A stretch of 64,000 nucleotides of DNA from an uncultured Bdellovibrionales bacterium (lineage in GTDB: Bacteria; Bdellovibrionota; Bdellovibrionia; Bdellovibrionales; SG-bin7). Of the stretch, positions 2,820-57,791 are shown in pieces. The number at the start of each line of letters is the position of its first letter. Position 1 is the stretch's first letter. Both the position numbers and the translations under genes were made by a program. The notes beneath the pieces are model-generated. The model had not been told where the DNA came from. It was given only the letters and a program-made list of their open reading frames with translations, and did no database searches. The stretch is from NCBI GenBank assembly GCA_964498095.1, contig CAZCFY010000001.1, forward strand, positions 59,386-123,385. Reading direction: 5' to 3'.

Positions 2820-5060
2820 TTATAAGCTAGCTAAAACTTCAATGAGCCGCGCTTTATCAATTGGTTTTGTAATGTAGTTTGTGAAGCCGGAGCGGAGAGC
2901 CTCTTCTTTATCCGTTTTCATCGCGTGGGCGGTTACCGCGATTATGGGTTTGTCGTAACCCTGTTTACGTAAAGCGTGAGTTGCTTCATTGCCGTCCATT
3001 CCCGGCATTTGAATATCCATAAGGACAACGTCATATTTTCCTTTTAGCGCCGCTTCAACTCCGGTAATTCCATCAGAAGCTTCAACGACATTTGCGCCCG
3101 CAAGAGTCAAATAATGTTGCATTACAAAGCGAATATCCGAAGAGTCGTCAACGAGAAGAATATTTTTTCCTGTTAATGGCTGTTCGAGTTTCTGCTGGAG
3201 TGTTTTTTGCATCTTATAAGATGCCAATTTCTTATCAGGAACCGTAATTCTAAAAACGCTACCTTGGCCAATATCGGAGCGTATTAATTCCATATCACCA
3301 CCCAGGGCTTGGGCAACCTTCTTGGACAGCACTAAACCAATTCCTGTTCCGCCAAAACGGCGGCTCATCGAGCTATCGGCTTGAGAAAAAGGCTTAAATA
3401 GTCTTTGTTGCTGTTCCGTATTCATTCCAATTCCCGTATCGGAAACAGTAAATTCGAGATAACTCTTGTCATCCTTACCGGTCATTCTCGTCGTAACCTT
3501 AACTTCACCTCGGCTGGTGAATTTGATGGCGTTACTTATGACGTTGATTAGAATTTGACGAATTCTAAGGGCATCATTAAACGCAAGGTCTGGAATGTGT
3601 CCGCGGTTATCAAAGACAAGAGAAATTCCCTTTTTCTTACTCCTAACTTCGAAGAATGCGTCGAGATCTTTAAGAAGATTCTTTGGCTGAAAAGGTTTTA
3701 CCTCAATTTGTAAGGCGCCAGCTTCAATTTTTGAGAGGTCGAGAATTTGGTCGATTAGAGAAGAAAGGTATTCAGCGTTACCTTGCATCCTTTCTATCAA
3801 GTCTTGCTTTTCTGTGGCCGAGATTTTTTGATCTCCGAGTAAATCTAAAATTCCCAGAATAACACCTAACGGGGTACGAAGTTCGTGATTCATGTTGGCT
3901 AAAAATTCGCTCTTGGCTAAGTTGGCTTTTTCCGCCTCTAGCTGCGCCGACTGCGCGCGGGATAAACTTTGTTTTAAGTCGCGCTCTTTTTGTTGAATAA
4001 GTTCAGCGGCGGCGACAAGATTTTTACCGAGCTGTTCCACTTCACTAACCCGAGAAGGCTCAATAATGGGAGTCTGGCCGCGGGCGAGCAAAGAAGCACC
4101 GGCTGCCGCTCCACGAATTTTCCGGGCAAGCTTGCGGGAATAATTTAGGGCAATTCCCCCGAAAGTTACAATTAGCAGAAGGCCAAAGGCAGAAAGAATT
4201 ATTGAAGCCTTCCGTGTTTGGGCTTCAAAGGTCTTTATCGGAAGGCCGACAGCAACAATCCATCCAGATAGTGGAGACTGATAATAAGAAAAATAGATTG
4301 GCTCACCATCAATGGAGGGAGAGCGGGCTAAACCCATCGGAGAGGTCTTTACTAAGTCCAAAAAAAACCCTGGCGCGGGGCTGCCCACGTAATCATCGGG
4401 ATTTCGGCTTCTGGCAACGATGAAACCGTTTTTATCTATTACTGTGCGGGTCCACTCCTCAGTCGCCCCCGGAGGCGATGTGGTGATTAGGTTTTGCATA
4501 GATTCAGGAGAGACTATGGCGGTTAATGAGTAAGCTACTTTGCCTTTGTCGTAAATCGGCACGCGCACGGGAAAAGCCAAGCGGCCAGGAAAGCTAGCCT
4601 CCGAAGAACCTTTAGCCAAAGTACCAATGGTAGGCAGTCCTGTTGCAAATAGTTCCTCCAAGCTTTTAGGTTCCACCGGTAAACTCATTCTTTCCTCAAA
4701 AGGCTTTAGGGCACTTAAGATTAATTTTAAGTCGCGAGAGTGTAAAACAATGGTTAACCAGTTTGGTTGAGTTTTTAAGATATCTAGCATTTCGTGATGA
4801 AATGCCCGCATGTCCTTGCGCTTTAGCTCGTCATTTGCGGCGATGGCCTGAAGGGTCTTAATCGTTGATTCAAGTTCGCGGTCTAACGAAATAGCTAAAT
4901 CACGCGCCGAGCGCGATAATTGTTGTTCGGAATCAACGCGCTCGTTATTTACCAGCCAGCTCACCAAAATTCCGGCAAAAATAAAAAATGGAATCATGGC
5001 GGCAAGTACTAGCCCCACTAAGTGCAAACTTAAGGCGTAGGATTTTCGCTGAACTTTCAT
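2820..5060 (-). CDS. Hybrid sensor histidine kinase (Cache-like sensor, HisKA, HATPase, REC)
   Basis: Two TM helices. FLANMNHELRTP, QILINVISNAIKFT, DTGIG, GGTGIGL. C-terminal ILLVDD...DIQMP...KP. Confidence 0.93.
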   Translation of the reverse strand: MKVQRKSYALSLHLVGLVLAAMIPFFIFAGILVSWLVNNERVDSEQQLSRSARDLAISLDRELESTIKTLQAIAANDELKRKDMRAFHHEMLDILKTQPNWLTIVLHSRDLKLILSALKPFEERMSLPVEPKSLEELFATGLPTIGTLAKGSSEASFPGRLAFPVRVPIYDKGKVAYSLTAIVSPESMQNLITTSPPGATEEWTRTVIDKNGFIVARSRNPDDYVGSPAPGFFLDLVKTSPMGLARSPSIDGEPIYFSYYQSPLSGWIVAVGLPIKTFEAQTRKASIILSAFGLLLIVTFGGIALNYSRKLARKIRGAAAGASLLARGQTPIIEPSRVSEVEQLGKNLVAAAELIQQKERDLKQSLSRAQSAQLEAEKANLAKSEFLANMNHELRTPLGVILGILDLLGDQKISATEKQDLIERMQGNAEYLSSLIDQILDLSKIEAGALQIEVKPFQPKNLLKDLDAFFEVRSKKKGISLVFDNRGHIPDLAFNDALRIRQILINVISNAIKFTSRGEVKVTTRMTGKDDKSYLEFTVSDTGIGMNTEQQQRLFKPFSQADSSMSRRFGGTGIGLVLSKKVAQALGGDMELIRSDIGQGSVFRITVPDKKLASYKMQKTLQQKLEQPLTGKNILLVDDSSDIRFVMQHYLTLAGANVVEASDGITGVEAALKGKYDVVLMDIQMPGMDGNEATHALRKQGYDKPIIAVTAHAMKTDKEEALRSGFTNYITKPIDKARLIEVLASL

Positions 5061-5184
5061 GGTGCCAGTGTTTTACGTAAAGACCACGGAGTAGTCTACT
5101 TTAAGATTAATGGGTTATGAATACTCCAACGAATTGGGGCAAAACTACCCAGACAAGTTTTCAATAACGATTCTAAGTAGACAG

Positions 5185-5457
5185 TTATTTGTAGCGTTGA
5201 ATGAGATGATAGCCAAAACGCGTACGTACGGGCATGGAGATTTCGTCTACCTTTAAAGCGAAGGCCGCGGAAGAAAAGGCTTCCACCATGCGCCCGTAGG
5301 TAAATTCTCCCAAATCGCCGCCGTTTTTTCCGGAGGGACATTTAGAAAACTTCTGTGCCAGTTCGGAGAAGGATTTACCGTCACCAAGAAGTTTTAGTAA
5401 ATCTTTTGCTTCATATTCGTTAGTTACCAATATGTGGCGTGCCGCGATCTTTTCCAT
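5185..5457 (-). CDS. ppiC: Parvulin-type peptidyl-prolyl isomerase
   Basis: AARHILV, FSELAQKFSKCPSGKNGGDLGEF, FGYHLI. True start is ATG at 5457. Confidence 0.9.
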   Translation of the reverse strand: MEKIAARHILVTNEYEAKDLLKLLGDGKSFSELAQKFSKCPSGKNGGDLGEFTYGRMVEAFSSAAFALKVDEISMPVRTRFGYHLIQRYK

Positions 5458-5461
5458 AGTA

Positions 5462-6406
5462 TTAATTAAACCAACAAGAGGATTGATCGCTGAGCCCGGG
5501 ATCTTCAGGACCTTTTGGCTTAGCAATGGTTACGGAGTGAATTTTTCCTTCAAATACCATTATCGATAAGTTTGCGACATGGCCTCGGTCGTTCGCTAGT
5601 AAAGTATGAATGCTGGTGAATCCTTGATTAAAGGCAAAGATTGTACTCTTTGGGGAAATCGTGAAATTGCCTTTTTTACCAAGGGCTTGAGTAATCTCAA
5701 ATTTTAAAACTTCTTTCTCATTCGTGACTTTCAGCTGACACTCATTTTCGGCGCTAAAATCATAACCCTTTATTTCGTTTCCGTTAAAATGTTTTAAGAC
5801 ACTTAAAGCATTTGATGAAACCTGACTAACAGCCACATTATAGCTTCTTGCGGGGCTTTTTTGACTAGAAGAAAGCTCAACAGTGCCCATGGGAGGTAAA
5901 TCATTAAGAGATTTCGTTAACGTTAATAAAAGAAAATCGGAGTTTTGGCCAGCAACAATAAAACCCAGACCCTCTAAGTGCATTATCTCGTTACGTGTCC
6001 AGTAATCACCATTGATTTCTGTGGAATATACGATATTTCCTTCGCCTTTAGCAAATTCGATATAGGTAAAGCTGAATTGGTTAAGGAGCGTGAGTGTTAA
6101 TTGAACTCTATAACCACGGTCTGGTTCCCCATTTTCTAAACGCGACCAAACTCCACTCCCGGTATAAATAGGATACTTTATTTCGGAATTAAAAATTAAG
6201 CTGGAAAAATAACTGCTGCGCGATAGCCGCGCCAGGGACTGCATTAGTTTCTTTCCGGATTCAGCTAAGCGCACCTTCATGTCTTCGGGAATCTCATATT
6301 TAGAGGGTTCAAATTTCGGCATCTTTGGTGTCTCGGGAATTTTGGGACCGAGACATGCCGTTAAAGTTAGAACCGCGCTAAAAATTAGAATTATTTTTGT
6401 TTTCAT
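5462..6406 (-). CDS. Hypothetical lipoprotein
   Basis: 314-aa ORF with MKTK + hydrophobic stretch + LTAC lipobox. Confidence 0.7.
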   Translation of the reverse strand: MKTKIILIFSAVLTLTACLGPKIPETPKMPKFEPSKYEIPEDMKVRLAESGKKLMQSLARLSRSSYFSSLIFNSEIKYPIYTGSGVWSRLENGEPDRGYRVQLTLTLLNQFSFTYIEFAKGEGNIVYSTEINGDYWTRNEIMHLEGLGFIVAGQNSDFLLLTLTKSLNDLPPMGTVELSSSQKSPARSYNVAVSQVSSNALSVLKHFNGNEIKGYDFSAENECQLKVTNEKEVLKFEITQALGKKGNFTISPKSTIFAFNQGFTSIHTLLANDRGHVANLSIMVFEGKIHSVTIAKPKGPEDPGLSDQSSCWFN

Positions 6407-48726: not shown

Positions 48727-48785
<59 letters not shown>

Positions 48786-48844
48786 CTTTTTTAGAAATAT
48801 ATAAGAGATTTTTTTAGTTTTTAAGGAATTTAAATAGATATAAC

Positions 48845-48878: not shown

Positions 48879-49220
48879 GTGATAAAGCAAGGACCTCTGA
48901 GCATTATAGTCTATGAAACAGCCGAAGGAAAAAGGCCCTACTCTGATTGGATCAAAAATCTTCGCGACTCGACAACAGTTGCTCGGATTAGGGCCAGAAT
49001 TGATCGTATCGAAGAAGGAAACTTAGGCCAGTATAAAGCTTTAGGCACGGGGCTTTTTGAATTTAAGTTTAATTTCGGATCTGGTTATCGTGTCTATTTT
49101 GCTGTTGATGGTGACAAGATTATTTTAATTCTTTCGGGCGGAGACAAAAGCTCGCAGCGAAAAGATATTCTTAAAGCCCGTGAATATTGGACCGACTATC
49201 TTATGAGGAAAAGAAAATGA
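48879..49220 (+). CDS. Type II toxin, RelE/ParE superfamily (HI1419-like addiction module killer)
   Basis: YET..GK.P...W...LRD......I..RI.R...GNLG..K.LG.GL.E.....G.GYRVYF...G..IIL...GGDKSSQ..DI.KA..YW. Confidence 0.92.
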   Translation: MIKQGPLSIIVYETAEGKRPYSDWIKNLRDSTTVARIRARIDRIEEGNLGQYKALGTGLFEFKFNFGSGYRVYFAVDGDKIILILSGGDKSSQRKDILKAREYWTDYLMRKRK

Positions 49221-49546
49221 AAAAAGTAAAAGTATCAAAAAAATTGCCTGCTGTTGATTACCGAGAAAGTCTTATTGAAGAGCTCAAAGGCGACGAAAAA
49301 GCGCAATACATGTACTTGAAAGTTTCTCTTGAGGAAAATGGCGACATGCCAGAAGTTTTCCTTAAAGCCGTTGAAACAGTAGCTAAAGCCCGTGGGTTTA
49401 GTAACTTTGCTAAAAAAACGGGCTTAAACAGGGAAAATCTTTATCGCATATTTTCAAATGAAAGAACTCCAAGGCTTGAGTCATTGGTTAAAATTTTGGA
49501 TGCTCTTGGTTTTAAACTTACTATTACTCCGAAGCGTGCTTCTTAA
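49217..49546 (+). CDS. Antitoxin, HI1420-like addiction module antidote (HTH)
   Basis: ATGA overlap with the toxin. VAKARG....A..TGLNRENLYRIFS....PRL..L.KIL.ALG.KL. Confidence 0.92.
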   Translation: MKKVKVSKKLPAVDYRESLIEELKGDEKAQYMYLKVSLEENGDMPEVFLKAVETVAKARGFSNFAKKTGLNRENLYRIFSNERTPRLESLVKILDALGFKLTITPKRAS

Positions 49547-50365: not shown

Positions 50366-50883
50366 GTGTCGTCGAAACATCACATTTACTTGCGCGAAGA
50401 TATTGAGAATCCACAGGGCAGTTAATGCTCTGAAAAAAGTTAAAAATTCTTATACTTTGGCGTTCTTGTCATACCCCCAGTTTCATTATTTTGGTAGATT
50501 CAGCCAAGAAAAAATGACCGTTAAAAACAGCAGTGCGAATATTTTTCCGATTCGAAAGGAGTGGATTTAGGTGAAGTATTCATCTCAGGCAAAAGGGCGG
50601 CAAGAATCGGGGCTCAGTCGGTAAATTTTATGGAAGAGACGGATATAAACGATTTCTCGAGTTTAAACACGAAGCCCAGAAGTCTCGGGTGGAACGCACT
50701 TTTGTGTTGGATGTTTGAGAATCAACAAATCATAGGGCGAAGAAGAAAGTGATAAGTCGCGCAGCTTTGTTTCAGGGCAAAAAGACGTGCAGAAGTATTC
50801 CTGGCTCAATGTGATAATCTTTTCCTTCGACGGTTTTTTATTTTTACGTCTTTACGCAAGTAAACGTGTCGTATCGACGTCAC
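50366..50883 (+). repeat. Element E1: 518-bp non-coding element with inverted 27-bp terminal sites (candidate ncRNA or non-autonomous element)
   Basis: Terminal sites 50366-50392 and 50857-50883. Core 50658-50715 is 57/58 identical to 53377-53434. Confidence 0.85.
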
Positions 50884-51120
50884 ATCCTTAATATCGCGTA
50901 ACCGGGAATTACTGCTTACGGCAGGAATTTGAATTTTGGCACGACTTTTGATGATTATAAAATGAAGTCGAGAAATTGAAGATATATTTAGCTAAGTGTG
51001 ATCATTTATTTGACAGTTATTAGCGAAATTCGTTCTGTCAAAGAAATTTACAATTTTTTTGGCGGCGTGTTTTTAATTAGCAAATTTGTTATCGAAAAAT
51101 ATTTAAGGAGCTTCATATTT

Positions 51121-52971
51121 ATGACAGGTATCCCAGTTTTATCGCGGACTAACTATGAGCGAATTTTATACAAGAGTTGGATAATTCTTGTATTAATCTT
51201 CCAGGGATTCTTTTTAACAAATTTGGCTTCTGCACAGTCAAAAGATTGTTCAGCAGTTTTTCACTCCTATCAATCTATCGAAGATCCTCGGCGAACCTAT
51301 GTTGAACAACTTATATTACGACTTCAGGATCAAGCCAAAAGAAATTCAGTAAGTCTTCTTAAAAGTAAATCTGTTAAGGATTTTGTTGTGGTGGGAGGAG
51401 GCCCTCACGGATTATCATTTACGGCGCTTTTGGAGCAGGGCAATCCCGAAATTAGTGGTGTAGTTATCGATAAAGGAAATGGTCGTTCGCCCATTTGGAA
51501 CGACGCAGGTGATAGCTTTCTCGTTGGACCAGCAGTGAGCCATCGACTTATCGGTAGCGCTGTTCAGCCCGGAGATTTGTTTGCAAAAGAAAGTCCTCGT
51601 CTTCCTGCCTTCACGATTGGAATGGCTTTACAATTCCTAAAAAGTCAGTTGCGTGCGAAACAGGTTCACGAAGATACCGTGGTGGCAATTCGTACCAACG
51701 GAAATCGCGAAAGGATTCAAACTCAAAATGGAATCGAAATTGATACCGACTGGGTTGTTCTTTCAACCGGACTTGGCAGACCACAATTTAAAATTGATGA
51801 TAAAGAATCAGTTGCACTCGTAGAAAGAATTGCAAATTCGCAAGTTCCAAATGACCAAGTACCGAATATTCAGTATGCACTCGATGCTTGGAAACGAGGG
51901 ACACAATCTATAAGAAAAAATCAAGACCCTCTAGCTCCTTATCGTGGGAAGCGTCTTGCCGTTATAGGTGGAGGCGGGGGTGCAAAAACCGAAGTTAAAC
52001 GTCAGTTAAATATTTTGAATTCAAATATTCCACCAAATTTACAAGAGGCGCTAAATCCAAAAACAAATGGGGGCCCTAACTTGTTACATTGGATTGGTAT
52101 CCAGGTAGATGGGTACTACAAGCCAAAAAAAAACCTATCTCCCTTTATTGATTCGAAGCGATTGATGATACACGACTCCCATGCAAAACGGATTTTTGAG
52201 CGGACCAAAATCGATGGTGAAAAAGAATATGTTATAGAAATTTCTCAAAGAGACGGACTAATTCAGGAGATCGTAGTTGATCAAGTGATAATTGCATCTG
52301 GCTTTTTAGGCCCAGAAGCATCTTTACCTTCTGGCCTTAGTTCGTCTGGAGAAAAGCCAATTCTTGACGACGTGATAGTCGATACACCTGATAGGGGTGA
52401 AATCGTAGTGGCCAAAAGAGTTCGTAATAGAAATGTACTTCTCGTAGGTACCGGTGCAGGAATTGAGGTTCCACCTGAAGAGCTGTTAAGTACACGAACT
52501 CCAGTGAGCTTTGCTTCATTAGGTCCACGTATAAGAACTGCCGCAGATTTTATAAGCACAAACTTGAACTACACAAATAACAAGAATATTCCCACTCTCA
52601 GAGCATCGCCTGAAAGAAATGCACCGTCCATTTTCGAATTTCATAAATACTCTAGTGGCATCAGGGTTAAAGATATAAATACAAATCTTTTACGACTACG
52701 TACTGCTATTGCGAGAGAGCTGGGTAAATTTCGTTATTCATCAGAAAATATTGAACTAGAATTTTCCAACGAAAGATTTGGTTTTCAACTAAAGATTTTT
52801 GGTTTTTTAGAGAATGATGCAAAAAGAATTTATGAAGAAATCAAATTAAATTCCGAGCTTATGTCTGCTCTGCAAGAACTTATGGATCAACCTGCACAAA
52901 AAATTAGAGTGAGCGTGAAAACACGCAAAGATGGTCGTGCTGAACCAGAGGGTATAGAAATCAAATTTTAA
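51121..52971 (+). CDS. Secreted FAD/NAD(P)-binding oxidoreductase-like protein
   Basis: Signal-like segment to ASA-QSKDCSAVF. VVVGGGPHG, VVLSTGLG, AVIGGGGGA, DQVIIASGF. Start 51121 preferred over 50998. Confidence 0.75.
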   Translation: MTGIPVLSRTNYERILYKSWIILVLIFQGFFLTNLASAQSKDCSAVFHSYQSIEDPRRTYVEQLILRLQDQAKRNSVSLLKSKSVKDFVVVGGGPHGLSFTALLEQGNPEISGVVIDKGNGRSPIWNDAGDSFLVGPAVSHRLIGSAVQPGDLFAKESPRLPAFTIGMALQFLKSQLRAKQVHEDTVVAIRTNGNRERIQTQNGIEIDTDWVVLSTGLGRPQFKIDDKESVALVERIANSQVPNDQVPNIQYALDAWKRGTQSIRKNQDPLAPYRGKRLAVIGGGGGAKTEVKRQLNILNSNIPPNLQEALNPKTNGGPNLLHWIGIQVDGYYKPKKNLSPFIDSKRLMIHDSHAKRIFERTKIDGEKEYVIEISQRDGLIQEIVVDQVIIASGFLGPEASLPSGLSSSGEKPILDDVIVDTPDRGEIVVAKRVRNRNVLLVGTGAGIEVPPEELLSTRTPVSFASLGPRIRTAADFISTNLNYTNNKNIPTLRASPERNAPSIFEFHKYSSGIRVKDINTNLLRLRTAIARELGKFRYSSENIELEFSNERFGFQLKIFGFLENDAKRIYEEIKLNSELMSALQELMDQPAQKIRVSVKTRKDGRAEPEGIEIKF

Positions 52972-53083
52972 AAATTTTATACTCTCTTTATTTACTACGC
53001 AACGACGCGGATAATATTTGAACAAAGGCCACGCAATTCAACAGGAATCAGCATTGCATAAAGATATCGTTCACTCAGTGGTC

Positions 53084-53591
53084 GTGACGTCGATACGTCA
53101 CGACCACTTGCGCGAGAATAAAAGACTTCCTAAAACCAGTTTAAGTGGCTCAAAATGAGATACGATTTTCTATGGCTACATTTATTGTCCTTCAAATAAA
53201 TAATATTTGCTAATCTAGGATTAACAATGGTGACCTTGAAATACAGCAGCGCGAGATTGTATCACAAAACGAATGGAGTGAGTAGCTGAAGTCAATTTCA
53301 ACTCGAGCGCGAGAGTCGGCAAGGTTCGGGGCAGATCGGTAAATTTCACGTATGGAGACGTATAACAACGAATTCCCGAGTTTAAACACGAAGCCCAGAA
53401 GTCTCGGGTGGAACTCACTTTTGTGTTGGATGTTCGAGATCCAGCTACCATAGAGTATTGAGGAAAGTGATAAGTCGCGCAGCCTCGTGAAGGTAAAGAG
53501 ACGTGCTGAAGTACTCTAGGCTCAACTTATTTCGGTTTTCTGTGTCCACATTTTTTCACCAGCTCAAGTAATCGTGACGTATCGACGTCAC
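53084..53591 (+). repeat. Element E2: 508-bp non-coding element, colinear homolog of E1
   Basis: Terminal sites 53084-53110 and 53565-53591; their outer 18 bp are exact reverse complements. Left end extends to a 14-bp-arm hairpin 53077-53108. Confidence 0.85.
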
Positions 53592-54170: not shown

Positions 54171-54216
54171 TGGTTGCGGGGAGAGGATTTGAACCTCTGA
54201 CCTTCGGGTTATGAGC
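54171..54216 (-). repeat. att-like duplicate of the 3' 46 nt of tRNA-fMet
   Basis: Identical to 57715-57760. Ends just beyond the anticodon loop. Confidence 0.93.
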
Positions 54217-54383
54217 TTGATAAGGTGATTTTTTGTAAGTGTCTAGAAACATGATTTTTTATTAACAATAACAAATATTTGAGCCACTAAAATACGTGCG
54301 ACTTAAGCCCAAACGTTTGAGGGCGGTTAAATTCGAGAATTCACTAACCATACTGTCAAAAGTTATTTATTGATCTTGAAAGT

Positions 54384-57714: not shown

Positions 57715-57791
<77 letters not shown>

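Follow-up and report, generated by a model that had tools for sequence, protein, structure and literature searches.

A transposase-less mobile element of Bdellovibrionales with a predicted large structured RNA as its interior

Two copies of a dispersed element

The DNA considered here, referred to throughout as the window, is a stretch of 64,000 nucleotides (nt) from an uncultured Bdellovibrionales bacterium (assembly GCA_964498095.1, contig CAZCFY010000001.1), and it holds on its + strand two direct copies of a non-autonomous element of ~510 bp, about two thirds of which is laid out like an RNA gene on that same strand. E1 (50366..50883), the older and partly decayed copy, and E2 (53084..53591), the better preserved one, are ~80% identical in full pairwise alignment and show the conserved blocks between indel-rich stretches that a preliminary description of this DNA, made from its letters alone, had noted. 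The blocks given there are also as described: a core (50658-50715 in E1, 53377-53434 in E2) identical at 57/58 positions, the single difference being GGAAC[G/T]CAC, and a 21-mer, GAAAGTGATAAGTCGCGCAGC, identical at 50745-50765 and 53463-53483. A profile of the element family matches E1 with E = 9.5e-128 and E2 with E = 8.8e-134 (nhmmer) and finds exactly these two copies in the window; core together with terminal repeat is likewise met there in E1 and E2 only, with a chance expectation of 0.

Both copies are bounded by inverted-repeat arms (50366-50400/50849-50883 in E1; 53084-53113/53562-53591 in E2), which in E2 are 90% complementary and in the family at large are 30-40 nt long and 80-95% complementary. 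Each end is a 13-nt inverted repeat, with the core ACTTG/CAAGT, capped by a hairpin, so that the tip of the arm reads as the hairpin GTGACGT-CGAT-ACGTCAC and then the conserved GWTTACTTGCGCG. At the left terminus of E2 (53084..53114, +) the hairpin is followed by the inverted-repeat core (GA)CCACTTGCGCG, and at its right terminus (53561..53591, +) the core, AGCTCAAGTAATC, precedes the hairpin GTGACGT-ATCG-ACGTCAC. The left terminus of E1 (50366..50396, +) has a degenerate hairpin, GTGTCGTCGAAACATCAC, with 3 mismatches to the consensus hairpin, and then ATTTACTTGCGCG; its right terminus (50853..50883, +) has the inverted-repeat core and then the hairpin GTGTCGTATCGACGTCAC. Among copies the stems of the terminal hairpins covary (GTGACGT/ACGTCAC, GTGCCGT/ACGGCAC, GTGTCGT/ACGACAC, GTCCCGA/TCGGGAC, GTGCTG/CAGCAC and GTGCCC/GGGCAC), and the ACTTG/CAAGT beside them is invariant across the aligned copies. 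Just beyond each terminal hairpin, three bases seem to continue the inverted repeat (GAY...RTC). Among 16 copies, compared by their flanks alone and without an empty site, no consistent direct repeat was seen.

Contig scans of one genome per species, with the terminal repeat, the core and a 5′-domain motif as queries, and a metagenome scan with the core, yielded 56 loci (designated below by L numbers) from species-representative contigs and metagenomes. They contain >40 full, partial or decayed copies, in ~15 Bdellovibrionales assemblies, all metagenome-assembled genomes (MAGs), and in freshwater metagenomes. The sources are MAGs of Bdellovibrionales, Pseudobdellovibrionaceae or Bdellovibrio, and metagenomes from fresh water or glacier streams, with the exception of three contigs (L006, L018 and L052) of MAG CALQIT02, binned as ‘Streptomyces griseus’; given their 43-47% G+C these are almost certainly misbinned Bdellovibrionales DNA. 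Searches of viral contigs and of phage and plasmid records gave no copy, and literature searches turned up no relevant account of such an element or RNA in Bdellovibrio. On the sequences scanned, the element appears to be confined to this one bacterial order.

Copies are 508-521 bp long, differ from one another in sequence by 20-28%, and occur several per MAG, in unrelated contexts with differing flanks, frequently at contig ends where assemblies break. Internal-deletion derivatives (L006, L025, L040, L050, L054 and L056) and solo ends (L038, L042 and L044) are also present. There is no syntenic ‘home’ locus for the element, the same terminal repeats are on every copy, no transposase gene lies within it, and no gene is enclosed by the ends of any copy. 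E1 and E2 are very probably copies of a transposase-less element of mobile type, mobile now or formerly.

A conserved fold on one strand

On the + strand the interior folds, through at least ten helices, into two domains with a hairpin between them. In domain I the 5′ end pairs ~190 nt downstream through P1 (50508-16/50697-705 in E1; 53224-32/53416-24 in E2) and P1b (50518-20/50690-92; 53234-36/53409-11), enclosing P2 (50537-42/50576-81; 53253-59/53293-99), P3 (53302-05/53310-13 in E2), P4 (53314-17/53323-26 in E2) and Hc (50656-61/50684-89; 53375-80/53403-08). Hc encloses a 22-nt loop (50662-83; 53381-402), UUUAAACACGAAGCCCAGAAGU, which hardly varies and exceeds every other stretch of the element in conservation, and the apical region of P2 carries an invariant GAAAGGAG, which is Shine-Dalgarno-like. 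Hairpin Hb (50706-10/50722-26; 53425-29/53441-45) comes directly after domain I. Domain II is closed by the long-range helix Hd (50735-44/50798-807; 53453-62/53514-23), of 10 bp with one constant mismatch, and contains He (50759-62/50787-90; 53477-80/53503-06) and Ha (50764-68/50774-78; 53482-86/53490-94). E2 retains essentially all helices. In E1, which is probably decaying, the left terminal hairpin is degenerate, P1 has two mismatches, and P3 and P4 are broken.

Evidence for the fold is comparative. When homologues were collected and submitted to RNAalifold, the check that the preliminary description had proposed, 18 full copies gave 52 predicted pairs and compensatory changes in 17 of these, and P1, P4, Hd, He and Ha were recovered independently. 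A nine-helix model, defined from the RNAalifold prediction and by eye and then counted, has standard pairs in 93.7% of 1137 cells over 26 copies, with 22/50 pairs (100 cells) changed on both sides, a value reached by 0/500 column shuffles. Sliding the 3′ partners by 1-3 columns lowered pairing in these copies to 32-42% and the number of compensatory pairs to 2-10. With six copies added the model stayed at 93.6% paired and 22 compensatory pairs (129 cells), compared with 32-42% and 5-11 in the slid control for the same 32 copies. Full-length copies come from many MAGs, and most keep >90% of pairs. The compensatory variants include GCAAUGGUG/CACUGUUGC, CUGGAAAUG/CAUUUCCGG and GCAACGGUG/CACUGUUGC in P1; CUCGAG/CUCGGG, CCUGAG/CUCAGG and CGCGAG/CUCGCG in Hc; GAUGG/CCAUC, GCUGG/CCAGC and AUUGG/CCAAU in Hb; and UUGAG/CUCAA, CGAAG/CUUCG, UCAAG/CUUGA and GGGAA/UUCCU in Hd. 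P2, the tenth helix, is in a region poorly aligned by MAFFT and was tested from fixed anchors, independently of the alignment: the mean binding energy of a copy's 5′ segment with its own 3′ segment is -7.4 kcal/mol, compared with -3.8 kcal/mol when the 3′ segment comes from another copy, and a foreign partner is as good as the native one in only 13% of cases.

Part of the core had earlier been drawn differently, as nested stems with TTCTCGAG/TTTGAGAA outside, AACACGAAG/TTTTGTGTT inside and a CCC/GGG hairpin. Both stems are able to pair in E1 and E2; over 26 homologues the set is 78% paired with 0 compensatory pairs, which is at or below every column shuffle, and it was rejected. The first strand of the outer stem really pairs with CTCGGG to form Hc, TTTGAGAA sits in the Hb loop, and TTTTGTG is part of the 3′ strand of P1. 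The replacement of a G-U by a G-C pair between the copies (TTCTCGAG versus TTCCCGAG) is a real change, with CTCGGG (50684-50689), not TTTGAGAA, as the partner. The hairpin noted further downstream (gcttt/agggc versus gcct/aggt) is Ha, and is among the best covarying hairpins of the family. The proposed ~300-nt structured non-coding RNA has held up, with strong comparative support, as to its -10 box, its lack of coding character and its + strand fold, and failed as to two of the three stems drawn for it.

Another candidate, a pseudoknot pairing GCCC of the Hc loop with GGGC upstream in the 5′ domain, was put forward by RNAalifold and was not retained. Copies with GGCC in the loop (L049, L052 and the second L017 copy) have GGGGCU upstream, as does E1, which is a register shift rather than a clean compensatory change; the three GGCC copies do not contradict the contact.

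The cells of the model contain 161 G·U and 20 A·C oppositions, an excess that points to the + strand as the one on which the fold was selected. This excess also bears on whether the interior might instead encode a small protein. The open reading frames (ORFs) of the two copies differ, with one of 63 amino acids on the + strand in E1 and ones of 59 and 76 on the - strand in E2; not one reading frame stays open throughout the copies, and which strand and frame hold the longest stop-free stretch varies from copy to copy, in agreement with the earlier claim that the interior is non-coding. The best candidate is a - strand frame through the invariant core (...LLGFVFxLEYSLxYVSSLKFTD..., window 50600-50760 and 53320-53480), with a median stop-free length of 72 codons in 18 copies. 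No start codon is conserved for it, three copies have it over only 32-35 codons, and towards its upstream side indels of 1-2 nt destroy it; it varies most at the second codon position and not at the third. The openness of this frame is probably a by-product of a conserved RNA sequence, and the probability that the interior encodes a protein is close to nil. That a conserved single-strand structure exists is, on the other hand, nearly certain, and comparison of copies shows the fold of the interior to be strand-specific, multi-helix and kept under purifying selection.

The fold lies between a promoter-like and a terminator-like signal. The extended -10 motifs previously placed at near-equal offsets are indeed there, TGGTAGATT (50492..50500, +) 126 nt into E1 and TGCTAATCT (53208..53216, +) 124 nt into E2. 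In the 26-copy alignment TAnnnT is kept in 19/21 copies and the upstream TG in 13, the surroundings being variable, and P1, the first helix, begins at a fixed spacing of 6-8 nt downstream of the TAnnnT box. Some 335 nt further on, ~45 nt inside the right inverted repeat, nearly all copies have a hairpin followed by 5-9 T, with lineage-variable stems (CCAAGG/CTTTGG, GGCT..AGCC, CCAGG/CCTTGG). Judged from these signals the unit would be transcribed from the -10 box as a stable RNA of ~335 nt that ends at the hairpin and U-tract, with predicted limits, on the + strand, of 50507..50845 in E1 (U-tract 50834-45) and 53223..53557 in E2 (U-tract 53551-56).

Two observations concern the regions just outside the fold. 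In each element the arm upstream of the promoter-like box is related to the 3′ half of the terminator-like hairpin as a ~20-nt direct repeat (in E2, 53166-53187 and 53536-53557, TTTTCTATGGCTACATTTATTG and TTTTCTGTGTCCACATTTTTTC), which is lineage-variable yet matched within a copy (CACTTTGGC in L004 and L033; TCAGCCA in L014). At L055 (4382-4451, -) the 3′ end of a group II intron (Rfam RF00029, 47 bits) adjoins a copy without a right arm, and a second mobile element has evidently inserted into or beside the terminator region there.

Candidate partners and the purpose of the structured strand

A domain scan of ~30 ORFs in the window revealed no transposase or recombinase, and no Y1 transposase was seen among them; an exact-sequence look-up of three window proteins found none on record. 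Two terminal-repeat scans, again of one genome per species, gave only small elements, deletion derivatives and solo ends, and the ORFs of loci with ends only (L003, L012, L038, L042 and L044) include no transposase between matching ends. The only protein family recurrent near copies is the IS91-type Y2 transposase (Y2_Tnp + Zn_Tnp_IS91). Its genes or fragments are within 0-250 nt of element ends at L026 (414-1181), L029/L036 (1451-2011 in L029), L033 (1261-2478) and L034 (1192-1347), and in the same locus at L023 (310-1862), L024 (6485-6796) and L039 (3-875). At L026 the Y2 gene is truncated exactly at the left end of the element; in L029 and L036 the element and its right flank are 98% identical, and the left flanks diverge 7 nt before the element. 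IS91-like ends (..CCTATCC) occur 60-90 nt from the element and are unlike the element's own ends, the window has no Y2 gene, and the proximity may reflect mere clustering of mobile DNA.

The Y2 genes and fragments are nevertheless pertinent to whether the folded strand acts as DNA. It could be a strand-specific cis element in rolling-circle or single-strand transposition, for instance one that primes the complementary strand in an element mobilized by a hairpin-recognizing HUH enzyme. Single-strand origins (sso) of rolling-circle plasmids are strand-specific folded DNA on which RNA polymerase makes a short primer, and the nuclease sites of HUH enzymes in the IS91 and phiX174 families are hairpins, which the terminal hairpins with their invariant ACTTG resemble; strand specificity of the structure is also what a single-strand DNA signal would have. 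However, ~12% of the paired cells are G·U wobbles, a costly pairing in DNA but a common one in RNA; the long-range helices are typical of RNA, as are the multi-helix junction and the C(UUCG)G loops; the -10 box is directly before the first helix and the U-tract directly after the last; and the ends of IS91 type and the window's lack of a Y2 gene are as given above. Action as single-stranded DNA is accordingly considered improbable, and action of the conserved structure as RNA likely.

The best explanation, held with moderate confidence, is that of a transposase-less mobile element with a structured RNA of ~335 nt that probably serves the element itself, which would need it for spread or retention. 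That the RNA is probably required by the element is suggested by an interior more conserved than the tips and by the fold being kept by most full-length copies in many genomes. What it would be required for is a more tentative matter. Service in the element's own propagation is a possibility held with slightly more doubt than belief, and the same degree of reserve attaches to the proposal that the RNA would be a scaffold to which a trans-encoded recombinase or maintenance factor would bind. Such a scaffold is the most plausible role given that the loops are invariant and that there is no programmable segment.

A programmable guide, by comparison, is disfavoured. The preliminary description had raised the idea of a guide like the IS110 bridge RNA or the omega RNAs of IS200/605 elements, with variable spacers matching targets; no recombinase, TnpB or IscB gene lies in the element or, among the ~30 ORFs scanned, in the window, and neither predicted end of the RNA is free, both being internal and structured. 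In comparisons of the interior with the 40-nt flanks, in the same and the opposite sense, and with the element's ends, the longest matches were at chance level, though split matches of 4-7 nt would escape. The 3′ segment matches the hairpins of its own copy over a mean longest stretch of 5.6 nt and foreign ones over 5.2 nt, with only E1 and L033 standing out. Nor did the suggested recourse to Rfam identify a known family: release 15, with gathering thresholds and with E <= 10, gave no match over the element in the window and four typical copies, the only Rfam matches in the window being two tRNAs away from the element.

An unlikely but more specific version of service to the element is an ‘RNA-only’ transposon, in which a recombinase supplied in trans, whether HUH/Y2 or an unknown protein, would depend on the RNA as an obligatory cofactor, and the RNA would assemble on, or mark, the element's own hairpin ends.

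Several results weigh against the explanation preferred here. Both the transcript and its limits are predicted from sequence; a generic sigma-70 scan calls a promoter in neither E1 nor E2, since no -35 is recognizable; and many copies have only a weak terminator hairpin, which in E1 and E2 has decayed. Because the copies are related, the shuffle control overstates significance, the slid control being the stronger. Single sequences fold no better than their shuffles (z = +1.3 for E1, +1.0 for E2 and -0.3 for L029) and the z-scores are non-significant on both strands, so that only comparative evidence counts for the fold. The scans described above for the family found neither a partner protein nor an autonomous element with the same ends, and a target-site duplication is not evident in the flanks of 16 copies. 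With no partner, parent or duplication found, the claim of a part in propagation rests only on the evolutionary argument.

Non-autonomous elements of such a size usually originate by deletion from an autonomous one, and the ‘RNA’ might then be the fused 5′ leader and 3′ untranslated region of a lost autonomous insertion sequence, conserved only through the youth of the copies. One locus is relevant. At L019 (2708-3985, -) a copy is normal as far as CCATAGAGTGATG inside Hd and then runs straight into HTH and DDE_3 (IS630-type) frames, with no right end following; the locus has been rearranged, or else it preserves a remnant of a form that bore ORFs. It is a single fusion, without a matching right end and with its junction inside Hd, and in the terminal-repeat scans no pair of such ends was found to enclose a gene. 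Moreover, at 20-28% divergence, and with pairing nonetheless kept by compensatory changes, the copies are not merely young. The probability of such an origin is put very low.

The neighbourhood of the copies bears on a different alternative. A 67-nt direct repeat, 85% identical (48727-48793 and 54171-54237), corresponds to the 3′ part of a tRNA-fMet-like gene (-), and an intact tRNA-Met is at 57715-57791 (-). Together with the intact tRNA gene the repeats look like attachment-site remnants of tandem islands without a remaining integrase, E1 and E2 being in the first segment; the repeats bracket 48.7-54.2 kb, and both copies are in island-like DNA. A Gp49/HigB-like toxin with its HTH antitoxin is encoded at 48879-49546, ~800 nt left of E1. 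The same pair, at 78-90% amino-acid identity, is in L015 (4137-4801), 67 nt from the right end of the copy there, and a Gp49/HigB-like pair is found again in L017; an HTH_37 protein and a DUF3024 protein are also encoded upstream in the window.

Such surroundings would suit a small RNA that is regulatory or otherwise directed at the cell and that rides the element as cargo, with no part in movement, acting for example by protein sequestration or by base pairing of the invariant loop, or of the GAAAGGAG loop, with an mRNA. Its -10 box, RNA and terminator-like hairpin make a self-contained unit; its invariant loops, including the Shine-Dalgarno-like one, are single-stranded; and its complementarity to the element's ends or flanks is at chance level. 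Yet selection by the host would need one good copy per genome, whereas most full-length copies preserve their pairs, and the want of a home locus and the sharing of terminal repeats by all copies are also contrary to it, as is the finding that the complement of the invariant Hc loop occurs nowhere else in the window. A cargo RNA is thus rather unlikely, if of all the alternatives the one deserving most weight, and service to the element itself continues to be the preferred explanation.

Between the direct copies E1 and E2 is an ORF of 616 amino acids (51121..52971, +), Pyr_redox_2 flavoprotein-like, which is a neighbour or passenger and not part of the RNA. The same layout recurs in L017 (4119-6060), where two direct copies flank an unrelated ORF of 275 amino acids (4697-5524); the second of these copies is of a divergent subfamily and has a matching inverted repeat that is its own, ATCTACTTGTTG/CAACAAGTAGAT. 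The succession of element, ORF and element could be a composite or cassette-like arrangement, or reflect a local insertion preference.

Relation to known systems

Structured RNAs of such size with so much covariation support are rare, and this one has no counterpart in Rfam. An interior more conserved than the tips is the reverse of the neutral decay of a non-autonomous transposon and is the signature of bridge and omega RNAs, where the RNA belongs to the mobility machinery. If that were true of the present element, it would imply an unrecognized RNA-protein recombination system in predatory bacteria, and, were the element an ‘RNA-only’ transposon, a new kind of RNA-dependent mobility, the RNA coming from the non-autonomous partner and nothing but the protein from the autonomous one. 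Even as cargo it would be a new class of large RNA, with ~40 natural variants and clear mutational targets in P1, the Hc loop and Hd.

In its DNA the element is closest to MITEs (miniature transposable elements with inverted repeats), some of which carry promoters or yield small RNAs, as with the Coxiella MITEs (PMC5896051) and others reviewed (PMC10969869). The likeness is in being small, without a transposase gene, with terminal inverted repeats and a promoter-like site, and in several dispersed copies per genome of which some are decayed. Correia elements of Neisseria are also MITEs of such a kind, and MITEs normally have a known parent element. The present element differs in having an interior conserved across species that folds as a multi-domain structure of ~335 nt and tips that are structure-conserved hairpins, and in that neither a parent insertion sequence nor a target-site duplication was found by the scans and flank comparisons above.

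With IS110 bridge RNA it has in common a structured non-coding RNA inside a mobile element with its own, here predicted, promoter. Bridge RNA is ~150-250 nt long, adjoins the gene for the DEDD recombinase, carries two internal loops, one matching the target by complementarity and the other the donor, and is conserved because the element needs it; IS110 elements are without long terminal inverted repeats (PMC11208160, PMC11208158). The element described here, in contrast, has no recombinase gene and has inverted repeats of 30-40 nt, and the most conserved loop of its RNA is invariant, not programmable, with no complementarity to flanks or ends detected.

Omega or right-end RNAs, those of IS200/IS605 TnpB and of IscB (HEARO in Rfam among them), overlap the element end, read their guide from the flank and adjoin tnpB or iscB. 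They are transposon-borne scaffold RNAs (200-400 nt in the case of IscB), as the present RNA would be, and their host elements too have hairpins at the ends. By comparison, the predicted 5′ end of the present RNA is locked in P1 and its 3′ end is a terminator-like hairpin ~45 nt inside the element, the terminal hairpins form a true inverted repeat, and the Rfam and ORF searches gave neither a HEARO or IS605-orfB match nor a tnpB or iscB gene. Of the features that define bridge RNAs and omega RNAs none was detected in the present RNA, the likeness being that of a transposon-borne structured RNA only.

The hairpin of 7-8 bp at each end, in inverted orientation, resembles REP and REPIN sequences, as a resemblance only: the window has four such hairpins, all in E1 and E2, as against tens to hundreds of REP copies per genome, and in REP/REPIN systems a RAYT transposase gene is flanked by REPs. 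ROOL, GOLLD and OLE are large structured bacterial RNAs, often in mobile DNA, and the present RNA is like them in being several hundred nt long, in its covariation-supported multi-helix fold and in its situation in mobile or island DNA. It differs in being the sole content of an inverted-repeat element, within one bacterial order, and Rfam searches revealed no similarity of sequence or structure. The element is accordingly filed as a non-autonomous element, most MITE-like in DNA anatomy, with a new large structured RNA as its payload.

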